Of a stretch of 64,000 nucleotides of DNA, positions 3,972 through 60,402 are shown one piece after another. The translations under genes were made by a program, and so were the position numbers. Position 1 is the stretch's first letter. The number at the start of each line of letters is the position of its first letter. Source of the stretch: Vulcanimicrobiales bacterium (GTDB lineage: Bacteria > Vulcanimicrobiota > Vulcanimicrobiia > Vulcanimicrobiales > Vulcanimicrobiaceae). The DNA lies in contig JBBRLI010000007.1 of assembly GCA_038231455.1 (NCBI GenBank), positions 87,657-151,656 on the forward strand. Reading direction: 5' to 3'. The notes beneath the pieces were generated by a model. It saw nothing but the letters and a program-made list of their open reading frames with translations. It had not been told where the DNA came from and ran no database searches.

Positions 3972-5506
3972 ACGTTGGTCCCCTCTTGGGCGGCATCGGC
4001 AATGCGGTAGCGGCCGAGTTCGCCGGTAATCACCGTTGCTTGGGCGTTCATTTCTTCAGCCGAACTCAAGATGCGCTGCGCGGCCGAGGTGACCTCAGCG
4101 TTGACGTAGCTGAGGACTTCGACCGACGAGGCGTTCTGTCCGGAGATTCCGGCGATCCCTTCGAACGCACTCGAGACTTCGTTTGAGTGTGCGGCCATCT
4201 GCTGCGTTGCCGCGAGATTGGCTGCGACCGATCGCGTGATCTCATCGAGCGCCCGTATGACGGAAATGGAATTCTGACTCATCGAGCGCGTCACGTTCGA
4301 GATTTGCGTGATCTGATTGTTCGATTTGAGAACCGCCTCGACGATCTCGCGTAAGGCAAGCGACGCGTTATCCGTCGATGAAACACTCTCTTCGACGCGC
4401 TCGGTGAGACGCTGCATTGCGTGGGTCACCTCGGCGATGACGCCTTGCGTCGAGCCGATGTGTCCGGCGATTTCTTTGGTAGCCGCCACGCTGCCGTCGG
4501 CAAGTTTGCGGATCTCCGATGCGACGACCGCGAATCCGCGTCCGTGTTCGCCTGCACGCGCCGCTTCGATCGCGGCGTTGAGCGCAAGCAGGTTCGTCTG
4601 TTCGGCGATCCGGTCGATCACTTTGACGATGTCGCCGATCTGCGATGAGTTGTCGCCGAGTTGACGGATATCGCTTGCCAATTCGCCGATCGTCGCGCGG
4701 ATGGTGTCGAACGAACCGACGATCGTGTGGATCGCCGAACCGCCGCGGTCGGCCGTGAGCGACGTCTCCGAACTAATCGTTAAGAGGGAATCGACTTGTT
4801 CGGCGACTTCCTCGATCGATGAGGACATCGCCGTTACCGATAGTGCCGTTTCATCGAGGGTGCGCGTCTGCTGTTCGGCCGAACCCGCAATCGTCACGAT
4901 GGCGTCGGTCAAGGACGTGATTTTTGCCTGCGCGGCGGAGACGATTGAGGATTGTTCGAGGATGCCTTCTTCGAGTTGCTGTTGGGCAACCGAACTGCCC
5001 TCGATCACCGCAAGCGAATTACCGGCCGTATCGGTGAGCTCCGAACCTGCGACCGCGAGCCGTTCGACGTTGCCTTTCATCGCGGACAGAAAATCGCGCG
5101 TACTGAAAATCAATTTATTGAGGGCGATTCCCAGCTCCGAGAGCGGTCCGTCGGTGACCGCTAGATTCTTCGTGAAATCGCCTTGCGAGACTTCGCGAAT
5201 TCCCGCAGTCAACGCCGCGATCGTCGCGCTACTTCCGGCGACCGCACCGTTTTGGCCGCGTGGCAGGGCAACGGTCTTCGTCTTGCCGAGTGCCTCGAGA
5301 GCGGGGTTCTCGCCGGAGGGGGCGGTCGCGAAGGCCGCAAGCGTGAGGGCGGGTCCGGCTAGGAGGGCGGCCACAAGCGAATACCAGAGCAAGCCCGGTA
5401 TCGTCGCCATCCAGATCGCGAATCCAACGAGCAGGACGCCCACCAAGGCACTGACGATTCGCGGTGCCGCGTTCATCCGAAGGGGCGAGGGTGAAGGCCC
5501 GGTCAT
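3968..5506 (-). CDS. Methyl-accepting chemotaxis protein with no extracellular sensor domain
   Basis: [37 protein letters not shown] signalling motif, HAMP-like segment and two closely spaced N-terminal TMs. Confidence 0.95.
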
Positions 5507-45742: not shown

Positions 45743-45865
45743 AGCCGAAGCAGGTCGCAAGACCTCACCGGATGCCCTCGGGCGATCCGGTTACTATTCA
45801 GAGAAGCCACCTTGTGTGGCAGAAATTGAGTGGGAGTTGCTTGGGCAACCCCATTTTTTGTTTTC
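45743..45865 (+). promoter_or_regulatory. Structured leader with attenuator (L20-leader-like)
   Basis: Hairpins AGGTC-GCAA-GACCT and ACCGGAT...ATCCGGT, then terminator-like TGGG-A-GTTGC-TTGG-GCAAC-CCCA-TTTTTT upstream of infC. Confidence 0.6.
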
Positions 45866-45881
45866 TTGCCGGAGGACGCCC

Positions 45882-46613
45882 ATAGCTCGACCGCTTCGTA
45901 TCAACGACCAGATCCGTATTCGTACCGTCCGCGTCATCGACGATGAGGGTGCGCAACTCGGCGTGATGCCGACGGAAAATGCCTTAGCGCTCGCACGCAA
46001 CAAGGGCCTCGATCTGATCGAGGTCAGTCCGACGGCGGTGCCGCCGGTCTGCCGGATCAGCGATTACGGTCGCCTCAAATACGAGCAGTCGAAAAAAGAT
46101 AAAGACGCGCGCAAGAAACAGAAAAACTGGGAACTGCGCGAGGTCAAACTGCGACCCAAAATCGAGACCCACGACTACGAAGTCAAAGCGCGCATGGCCG
46201 AACGCCTGCTCACCGACGGCGGAAAAGTCAAAGTCACGATTATGTTTCGCGGACGAGAGATCACGTATGCCAGCTTCGGCCGGCGCCTCCTCGACCGCAT
46301 GGCCGTCGATATGACGAACATCGCGATTATGGAACGTGAACCCAAACTCGAAGGCAAGAACATGTTCATGATCCTGGCCCCACGCGCCGTACCGCTGGGA
46401 CCGCCGAAATTCACGCACGTGAAAGACGCGGTCGTCGATGCGGCCGCCAAGGCACAAGACGAAGAACCCGATCACGACGAGCATGAAGACGAACACGAAA
46501 TTCATGAGGACGGCGCGGTCGTAGCGGAAAATTCGGTAGCAGAAAGTCCGGTTGCCCAGGCGCCGGTCGCAGCAGAAGAAACCACCAACGTCGGGAGTGC
46601 CACCAGTGCCTAA
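45882..46613 (+). CDS. infC: Translation initiation factor IF-3, ATA start, acidic C-terminal tail
   Basis: GGAGG-N6-ATA GCT CGA CCG CTT CGT ATC AAC; RINDQIR, PPVCRI and KVKVTIMFRGRE motifs. Confidence 0.96.
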   Translation: MARPLRINDQIRIRTVRVIDDEGAQLGVMPTENALALARNKGLDLIEVSPTAVPPVCRISDYGRLKYEQSKKDKDARKKQKNWELREVKLRPKIETHDYEVKARMAERLLTDGGKVKVTIMFRGREITYASFGRRLLDRMAVDMTNIAIMEREPKLEGKNMFMILAPRAVPLGPPKFTHVKDAVVDAAAKAQDEEPDHDEHEDEHEIHEDGAVVAENSVAESPVAQAPVAAEETTNVGSATSA

Positions 46614-59980: not shown

Positions 59981-60010
59981 TTGGCCGGACCTTGCCGGGT
60001 ACGATATACT
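59981..60010 (+). promoter_or_regulatory. Probable sigma-70 promoter of infA
   Basis: TTGGCC-N18-TATACT. Confidence 0.55.
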
Positions 60011-60039
60011 AGGTGTATGCAGTTGAAACAGGTGAAGTC

Positions 60040-60354
60040 ATAGCTTCCCGCGGCTCGTACAAACGCGCCCGCCGGGTCGAAACGGCCAAAGCGGCCCCCA
60101 AAGAGCCCGATAAAGAGGGCTCGATTGAAATTTTCGGGACGATCAAACAGGTCTTCCCGTCGACGACGTTCTCGGTCGAGCTCGAAAACGGCCACGAGAT
60201 CCTCGCGCACATCGCGGGCCGGCTCCGCCGCCACCGCATCAAGATTCTGCCGGGCGACCGCGTGGATCTCGAAATGTCCCCGTACGATCTGACCAAAGGC
60301 CGGATCGTGTACCGCTACCGCGCCGGCGAAGCCCGCCGCTCAAGCCCGAACTAG
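60040..60354 (+). CDS. infA: Translation initiation factor IF-1, probable ATA start (alternative GTG 60013)
   Basis: IEIFG...[51 protein letters not shown]-like AGGTGA precedes an in-frame ATA at 60040. Confidence 0.95.
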
Positions 60355-60374
60355 CTTCGCATATCGTCCAAGAG

Positions 60375-60402
60375 AAAGCCGCTCGCAAAAGCGGCTTTTT
60401 TT
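60375..60402. terminator. Intrinsic terminator after infA
   Basis: AAAGCCGCT-CGCAAA-AGCGGCTTTTTTT. Confidence 0.88.

Follow-up and report, generated by a model that had tools for sequence, protein, structure and literature searches.

In a 64,000-nucleotide stretch of DNA (the window) from an uncultured soil bacterium of the Vulcanimicrobiota (also named Eremiobacterota or WPS-2; genome label G000), the gene for translation initiation factor IF1, infA, very probably begins at a non-canonical AUA codon, and this codon overlaps the stop codon of an eight-codon mini-ORF whose AUG is predicted to form the mRNA's 5' end. Taken as a whole, the explanation that we consider best, and judge to be on balance probable, is that the gene is the sole IF1 gene of its genome, that it belongs to a distinct kind (named type A here), that it starts at AUA, and that its translation is coupled to that of the leaderless mini-ORF. 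All genomes compared in this work are metagenome bins, and a few of their records carry other phylum names and are probably mislabelled bins. The features on which the argument draws, in window coordinates, are as follows.

59981-59986, plus strand: -35-like hexamer TTGGCC from a promoter scan, 18 nt before the -10 box and 5 nt after the stop codon of a CvpA-like ORF
60005-60010, plus strand: -10 box TATACT from the promoter scan, 6 nt before the ATG at 60017
60013-60015, plus strand: GTG from the plain ORF listing, probably unused, upstream of the predicted transcript start and within the 6 nt that separate -10 box and ATG
60017-60043, plus strand: mini-ORF MQLKQVKS, eight codons plus TAG (60041-60043), in the +1 frame with respect to infA; the mRNA 5' end is predicted to fall on its ATG
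60030-60035, plus strand: weak Shine-Dalgarno-like AGGTGA, within the mini-ORF and 4 nt before the ATA
60040-60042, plus strand: ATA, proposed infA start codon, overlapping the mini-ORF stop (ATAG); placed by alignment of relatives and by a third-position bias that begins after it
60040-60354, plus strand: proposed coding sequence of type-A infA, 104 codons and the stop codon TAG (60352-60354); TIGR00008 match at 1.8e-30
60040-60111, plus strand: basic extension at the N terminus, 24 codons long and ahead of the IF1 core, delimited by its substitution pattern
60112-60318, plus strand: IF1 OB-fold core, 69 residues, from profile and structure matches
60371-60402, no strand assigned: hairpin flanked by runs of A and of T, located between infA and the convergent gene, -19.8 kcal/mol, z = -3.09

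A first-pass annotation, made from the letters of the window, had placed the TATACT, GTG, ATG, AGGTGA and ATA at these coordinates, had read the ATG at 60017 as opening MQLKQVKS with a TAG that overlaps the ATA, and had seen no in-frame ATG, GTG or TTG between a predicted transcription start near 60017 and the IF1 core; on re-reading the sequence, all of these elements are present and the frame agrees.

The infA ORF matches the TIGR00008 profile from end to end (positions 1-69 of 69; 104.7 bits against a cut-off of 61.15) and also exceeds the cut-off of PF01176 (87.6 bits). All 12 of its structure matches are IF1 chains, the nearest solved structure being 2n8n_A (2e-25, residues 25-94). The genome, which is 93.67% complete, yields a single PF01176 match, and infA at 60040-60354 is thus the sole IF1 gene found in G000. 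The customary position of infA in bacteria is between map and rpmJ, a location that is typical of the gene and does not define it. In G000, adk, map, rpmJ and rpsM are clustered and the usual infA slot is empty, with a gap of 40 nt between map and rpmJ; infA itself is located outside the ribosomal-protein cluster, after pheT and a CvpA-like gene. To judge from its predicted fold, the hairpin at 60371-60402 is likely a two-way terminator that serves both infA and the convergent gene; it is absent from the output of the consensus terminator scan.

Comparison with related genomes distinguished two kinds of infA, which we call type A and type B. The first sample contained 41 genomes, 25 of the window's family and 16 of two neighboring families, and within it type A proteins are 67-99% identical to the window infA, and type B proteins about 45-55%. 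Type A is present in 18 of the 25 family genomes. Both types occur in six family genomes (the second copy in G014 being a partial match of 47 residues), and type B occurs alone in seven. In the two neighboring families a type-B-like gene stands alone in 15 of 16 genomes, and the remaining genome gave no match. Type B lies within an adk-map-infA-rpmJ-rpsM cluster in 9 of 12 loci, and all 12 have an in-frame ATG or TTG at the equivalent start position, followed by a basic extension. A wider sample comprised 401 genomes of the phylum (297 of the family and 104 outside it), with type-A level defined as E <= 1e-35. A match at this level was found in 217 of the 297 family genomes, while 72 had weaker matches only and 8 had none; outside the family it was found in 0 of 104 genomes, where the best E value was 1.9e-30. 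No E value fell between 1e-28 and 1e-35 across the 401 genomes. In a quick tree, type A split from type B with full support. Judged by these comparisons, type A is a family-restricted, lineage-specific infA paralog. The earlier suggestion that the window gene might be a second paralog therefore stands insofar as it belongs to a distinct paralog lineage, and falls insofar as it implied a second copy, this being the only IF1 gene found in G000. The genes that flank type A vary among genera and its 5' region persists; the pheT and CvpA-like neighbors seen in the window are limited to G000 and G001 (2 of 87 type-A loci). Some of the data come from genomes flagged as unpublished, namely 2 of the 12 type-B loci (G009 and G022), 1 of the 30 infC loci described below (G022) and 15 of the 401 genomes; locus L010 is from the flagged genome G020, and its upstream region is identical to that of the public locus L106. 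The conclusions do not depend on the flagged genomes alone.

Several observations concern IF1 copy number and location elsewhere in the phylum. Some genomes carry two type-A copies, which are adjacent and divergent at G278:C12:5059-6672 and G295:C163:16064-17755 and stand at separate sites in G145, G235 and G161. The large genomes (5-9.5 Mb) of two families of the phylum, f19 and f20, regularly contain two IF1 matches with E values of about 1e-27 to 1e-30, and these pairs are a separate infA duplication. In the neighboring family f2, three loci (L020, L022 and L023) carry a canonical-type infA outside the adk-map-rpmJ cluster, where TATACT is followed by 7 nt and then by the infA ATG, an arrangement that resembles that of a leaderless IF1 mRNA.

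The evidence for the AUA start comes from an alignment of type-A loci. We assembled 98 of them, 18 from the 41-genome sample and 80 from among 258 related loci, and 87 are distinct over 150 upstream bases. In 65 loci the start position was assigned by a rule that asked for AUN or NUG at a distance of 16-26 codons ahead of the core and for arginine to be encoded within three codons, and in the 22 of 87 for which the rule was ambiguous it was set by hand. The aligned start codon is ATA in 56 of the 87 loci, ATC in 18, ATT in 7, ATG in 5 and GTA in 1; ATA, ATC or ATT therefore occupies this position in 81 of 87, and the start codon is followed 66 times by GCN and 13 times by CCN. The first-pass annotation had proposed the ATA start, had suggested its conservation in relatives as a check, and had held that relatives with an ATG at this position and no uORF would speak against it; the proposal is strengthened by the 81 loci, and ATG, confined to 5 of 87, falls at the same aligned position where it is present (L016, L018, L019 and L101). 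A count that is independent of how the start position was chosen gives a similar picture: 53 of the 87 loci have no in-frame ATG, GTG or TTG anywhere from the upstream stop codon to the IF1 core. The other 34 have some in-frame canonical codon, and in several type-A loci a canonical codon within the extension could provide an alternative, shorter start. In the window, the ATA at 60040-60042 shares its frame with the IF1 ORF listed at 60013-60354, and no ATG, GTG or TTG occurs in this frame from the GTG at 60013 to the core. The GTG is itself replaced by GCA in G001 (locus L003), a genome of the same genus whose protein is 99% identical and whose 5' region is otherwise the same.

Substitution patterns place the beginning of the coding region at the same codon. 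Between G000 and G001, all 7 differences within the 24-codon extension are at synonymous third positions. In seven independent close pairs, the differences at first, second and third codon positions number 10, 6 and 30 in the extension and 4, 0 and 73 in the core, and in the 27 nt upstream of the start codon they number 7, 16 and 12. Because the third-position bias is seen in the extension and is absent upstream, coding constraint appears to begin at the ATA codon. G000 has 46 tRNAs, three with the anticodon CAU and none with UAU. A special AUA-reading initiator tRNA was rejected on this count, and the ordinary initiator tRNA must therefore read AUA with a third-position mismatch. From the aligned codons and substitutions we conclude that infA translation very probably begins at the AUA at 60040, read by the ordinary initiator tRNA, like that of infC in G000. 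An AUA start need not mean low output, because an engineered AUA-infA mRNA is described, in a passage of PMC5499595, as well translated in E. coli extracts. The single locus with GTA at the start position (L009 of genome G018, with the same upstream region in the public locus L072) keeps the -10 box, a nine-codon mini-ORF and the overlapping TAG; the GTA, which fits no known initiation rule, may reflect initiation at GUA, a mutation that arose recently or an error in the assembly.

A non-canonical start codon that acts as a sensor of IF3 activity is the textbook peculiarity of infC. In the window, infC begins at ATA (45882-45884) behind a GGAGG-type ribosome-binding site and in an ATA-GCT context, which the first-pass annotation had rightly described as common to infA and infC. 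Its start codon in 30 of 30 relatives is ATA (18), ATC (5) or ATT (7), each behind a GGAG-type site. Compared by eye, the start codons of infA and infC within individual genomes show no strict match (for infA and infC, respectively, ATT and ATC in G016 and ATT and ATA in G006). The repression of non-canonical starts by IF3 is given as the basis of infC autoregulation in PMC5499595. The two systems have in common an initiation-factor gene with a conserved AUA, AUC or AUU start behind a ribosome-binding site; they differ in that the present gene is infA, and in that infC in these genomes lies behind a T-rich leader and has no 5' mini-ORF. The region upstream of infC in the window (45800-45881) consists of a GC-rich segment and a T-rich stretch, together terminator-like, and the GGAGG-type site, an arrangement common to relatives that may represent an L20-type or attenuator leader.

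The mini-ORF depends on where the infA transcript begins. TATACT preceded by TTGGCC with an 18-nt spacer was found by the promoter scan at 1 site, as compared to 0.4 expected in shuffled sequences, and from the spacing of the -10 box we predict that the transcript begins at or next to the AUG at 60017. A consensus scan found no terminator between the upstream gene and infA, and read-through transcripts in which the ATG is internal may therefore also exist. A search of RNA runs returned small shares only (0.06-0.14): two of the four runs gave contigs of an approximately 91%-alike relative that cover 60043-60354 and the other two gave nothing, which makes them uninformative on the 5' end, strand and level of the transcript, and no weight can be given to the absence of cover before 60043. 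The 16S rRNA 3' end was not found in G000 with a 12-base pattern, and arguments from ribosome-binding-site pairing consequently rest on the usual consensus.

The mini-ORF reads ATG CAG TTG AAA CAG GTG AAG TCA TAG, and its stop codon shares two bases with the infA start codon in the ATAG at 60040-60043. The arrangement recurs well beyond the window. NTAG is present at the start position in 49 type-A loci, and in 33 of these an uninterrupted frame of 7-10 codons leads up to it from the nearest ATG in the +1 frame, giving the same overlap; in 1000 dinucleotide shuffles, ORFs of 7-10 codons were expected in 2.08 +/- 1.32 of the 49 loci (maximum 7), a statistic that overstates the significance because the relatives are not independent. 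The length of the mini-ORF is near-constant, at 8-9 codons. When all 37 loci with ORFs of 4-12 codons are considered, a -10-like hexamer precedes the ATG by 6-9 nt in 31, at a spacing of 6 nt in 15 loci, 7 in 3, 8 in 10 and 9 in 3, and in 22 of the 31 the hexamer is TATACT. As a non-circular check, loci were picked by the hexamer alone, which had to match 5 of 6 consensus bases and to end 27-40 nt before the start codon; this selected 30 of 86 loci, and 28 of the 30 have an ATG 5-9 nt after the hexamer, all in one frame. The conservation of the uORF in relatives, which the first-pass annotation had also named as something to examine, is thus seen in this subset.

Not every part of the arrangement bears on the mini-ORF. 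The TAG follows automatically from ATA and a GCN alanine codon, and it occurs likewise in infC and in type-A loci that lack the mini-ORF. Neither conservation of the peptide nor coding periodicity is seen, and the conserved bases inside the mini-ORF are those of the weak ribosome-binding site. By this sequence reasoning, real evidence for the mini-ORF comes from three features only: the open frame, the ATG and how far this ATG lies from the -10 box. These features are distributed unevenly. No such mini-ORF is present in 54 of the 87 type-A loci; where it is present, its partner at the infA start is ATA in 32 loci and GTA in 1, never ATG, ATC or ATT, and a small clade that switched to ATG is without it. 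Ribosome-binding sites are of a weak GGTG type in the loci with the mini-ORF, as opposed to an AAGGAG type, 6-9 nt before ATA, ATC or ATT, in the loci without it, and 12 of the 33 loci with the mini-ORF contain no exact match of at least 4 bases to the ribosome-binding consensus. In a weakly supported tree, 32 of the 33 fall in one 50-row subtree and 0 in another subtree of 32 rows. We regard both the ATA, ATC or ATT codon and the combination of -10 box, ATG and mini-ORF as more than chance, since in these alignments they recur in relatives with differing surroundings.

Starts of the leaderless type are seen elsewhere in G000. A strict -10 box followed by an ATG at 6-9 nt opens an ORF of at least 100 codons in 23 of 54 cases, versus 28 of 154 when the ATG is at 10-30 nt, and by this measure leaderless-type genes exist in the genome. 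A further search of G000 returned 24 rows in which a -10 box is followed 5-9 nt on by an ATG that opens an ORF of 5-13 codons, with a stop codon that overlaps the GTG, ATG or TTG of a long ORF; examples are on C3 (plus strand, near 86827), C6 (plus, near 100573), C12 (minus, near 4003) and C13 (plus, near 79433). G000 may make general use of leaderless mini-ORFs to which a main gene is coupled, although several of these rows probably reflect chance occurrences inside genes. Among type-A loci, a second recurrent type of upstream region is found in L057, L064, L066, L069, L070, L084, L104, L111 and L113, where ATA or ATT is preceded, at about 45-55 nt, by a conserved GGGATAGT-like element that may be an extended -10 box; a strong ribosome-binding site follows this element, and there is no coupled mini-ORF.

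We propose the following sequence of events to explain the layout of the window gene. The gene would have left the ribosomal-protein operon and would carry its own promoter, whose -10 box would set the transcript start at or next to the AUG at 60017 and so place a leaderless eight-codon mini-ORF at the head of the mRNA. Ribosomes recruited by the 5'-terminal AUG would translate the mini-ORF across the weak AGGTGA, terminate at the UAG that lies on top of the AUA, and re-initiate at the AUA; re-initiation would offset the weakness of the infA ribosome-binding site. We lean towards this reading, in which translation of the mini-ORF ends on the AUA and infA translation resumes there, and regard it as somewhat probable. 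A variant in which mini-ORF translation opens an occluding RNA structure around the AUA was rejected on the fold results: the leader of the window has a fold z of -1.33, the mean over the 33 loci with the mini-ORF is -0.02, a fixed-register hairpin of at least 4 pairs is present in only 4 of the 33, and no consensus fold was found among the 23 loci with nine-codon mini-ORFs.

The alternative that survives best is plain initiation by the 30S subunit at the AUA via AGGTGA, with the ATG at 60017 serving as a mark of the transcript start or as a ribosome standby site and the mini-ORF untranslated or inert. We consider it unlikely, although a good part of the data suits it: the peptide is not conserved, what is conserved within the mini-ORF is the stretch that corresponds to the ribosome-binding site, ATA-GCN yields the TAG as a side effect in infC and in loci without the mini-ORF too, and 54 of 87 loci do without the mini-ORF altogether. 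In addition, E. coli ptrB needs a 5' AUG and not translation of a peptide, as described in part of PMC4965119. An inert ATG is harder to reconcile with the finding that in 28 of 30 loci the -10 box is followed by a full ATG and not simply by a purine, with a reading frame that reaches the TAG unbroken and hardly varies in length (8-9 codons), with ribosome-binding sites that are weaker exactly where the mini-ORF is present, and with the leaderless-type genes in G000. The mini-ORF could also be translated as a brake, in which case the ribosomes engaged on it would hide both the AUA and the ribosome-binding site and so block IF1 synthesis. The distance from AUG to AUA is 23 nt, which is shorter than a ribosome footprint, and the two codons therefore cannot be occupied together, an argument that is made for ptrB in the same part of PMC4965119. 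We judge this to be decidedly improbable, however, as a weak site, a poor start codon and a brake would together result in very low output of an essential, abundant, single-copy factor.

Initiation at the GTG at 60013, on a transcript that arrives from upstream, would produce an IF1 of 113 residues. It would make use of the only canonical in-frame codon, and no terminator was found after the upstream gene, but this start has very little probability: the codon is GCA in the otherwise identical 5' region of G001, no ribosome-binding site precedes it, 53 of 87 relatives have no canonical codon to use, and third-position bias is absent upstream of the ATA. In prfB, an in-frame stop codon is found with a Shine-Dalgarno-like element shortly upstream. 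A start at the ATG with a shift of the release-factor-2 type into the infA frame at the TAG, which would give an IF1 with the mini-ORF peptide at its N terminus, resembles this layout in its stop codon and Shine-Dalgarno-like element but is least credible of all and was rejected, since the shift would have to be -1 and not +1, the codons before the stop vary (TCA, CCA, CTA, AAA, CGA) and form no slippery site, and 54 of 87 loci keep ATA, ATC or ATT without the ORF.

If the preferred reading of termination on the AUA followed by re-initiation is correct, the leader would tie IF1 synthesis to the activity of the initiation factors; the first-pass annotation had likewise suggested that it may sense IF3 or initiation fidelity. 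By analogy with E. coli, IF3 would disfavor leaderless initiation, re-initiation and the non-canonical start, and IF1 would support IF3 in this. Passages of the literature describe inhibition of leaderless translation by high IF3 and enhancement of the other factors by IF1 (PMC9031893), and a marked lowering of re-initiation upon IF3 overexpression (PMC2268962). Since IF3 disfavors all three steps and IF1 aids it, IF1 output may be coupled inversely to IF3/IF1 activity, which would keep both factors in balance; we offer this tentatively, the direction of the coupling included, and with somewhat more doubt than confidence. According to a section of a review, IF1 stimulates coupling by 70S scanning and its depletion lowers coupling (PMC12548453), and on this basis the feedback would be positive and not homeostatic. 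The most far-reaching version, in which leaderless AUG, termination-reinitiation and AUA start form a three-step gate, each step being disfavored by IF3 together with IF1, and in which infA and infC make up one fidelity feedback circuit, is possible and in our estimation doubtful.

Translational coupling by termination and re-initiation generally involves overlapping stop and start codons, of the ATGA and TGATG types. The infA leader is similar in that its stop and start codons share bases (ATAG) and its downstream ribosome-binding site is weak, and excess IF3 is reported to lower re-initiation in the portions of PMC2268962 and PMC12548453 that bear on such systems; it is different in that the upstream cistron is an eight-codon leaderless ORF in place of a gene, and in that the re-initiation codon is AUA. 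A second relevant system is formed by E. coli mRNAs that carry 5'-terminal AUGs in addition to ribosome-binding sites. In the part of the study that describes them, these AUGs bind 70S ribosomes and are needed by the downstream genes ptrB and rcnR (Beck, Fleming and Janssen 2016, PMC4965119). Both leaders are short (26 nt in ptrB, a predicted 23 nt in infA) and combine a 5' AUG, likewise predicted in infA, with an internal ribosome-binding site, whereas only infA, which is known from sequence alone, has a non-canonical start, a stop codon that overlaps it, and a layout conserved over many genera. In mycobacteria, leaderless short ORFs head transcripts, as set out in portions of two reports (Shell et al. 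2015, PMC4633059; for polycysteine ORFs, bioRxiv 10.1101/834739). These too are short, unannotated first cistrons at the first base of the transcript, a position that is predicted in the case of infA, and some are regulatory. In the regulatory cases described there, codons of the peptide sense an amino acid, while the infA peptide is not conserved and the link would be the start codon. Lastly, chloroplast infA has a functional UUG start that limits translation (Hirose et al. 1999, as cited in a passage of PMC9845219). It shares with the present gene its product, IF1, and a non-AUG start, the one described in that passage being limiting for translation; however, UUG is canonical in bacteria and accepted by IF3, whereas AUA, AUC and AUU are not.

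No naturally occurring infA that starts at AUA, AUC or AUU came up in full-text searches of limited coverage, the closest case being the UUG start of chloroplast infA. What appears to be new, as read from the sequence, is the union in one leader, and on infA, of an infC-type start codon, an mRNA with a 5'-terminal AUG and a presumed coupling through overlapping codons. Leaderless initiation, re-initiation and near-cognate start, all three of them poorly understood, would be combined within 40 bases, and this design should be of clear interest to translation specialists and can be tested with short reporters. On the practical side, gene callers that accept only ATG, GTG and TTG are expected to misplace or miss the essential infA gene in these genomes. 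If the three-step gate were true, infA would be the first initiation-factor gene besides infC known to be under start-codon control, and its mini-ORF would be the first leaderless one known to hand ribosomes on to a non-canonical start. Type A is the only IF1 gene in many of these genomes, G000 included, and the conservation of an AUA-class start on the IF1 gene of the family suggests that a second initiation factor can be tied to the same fidelity gauge.
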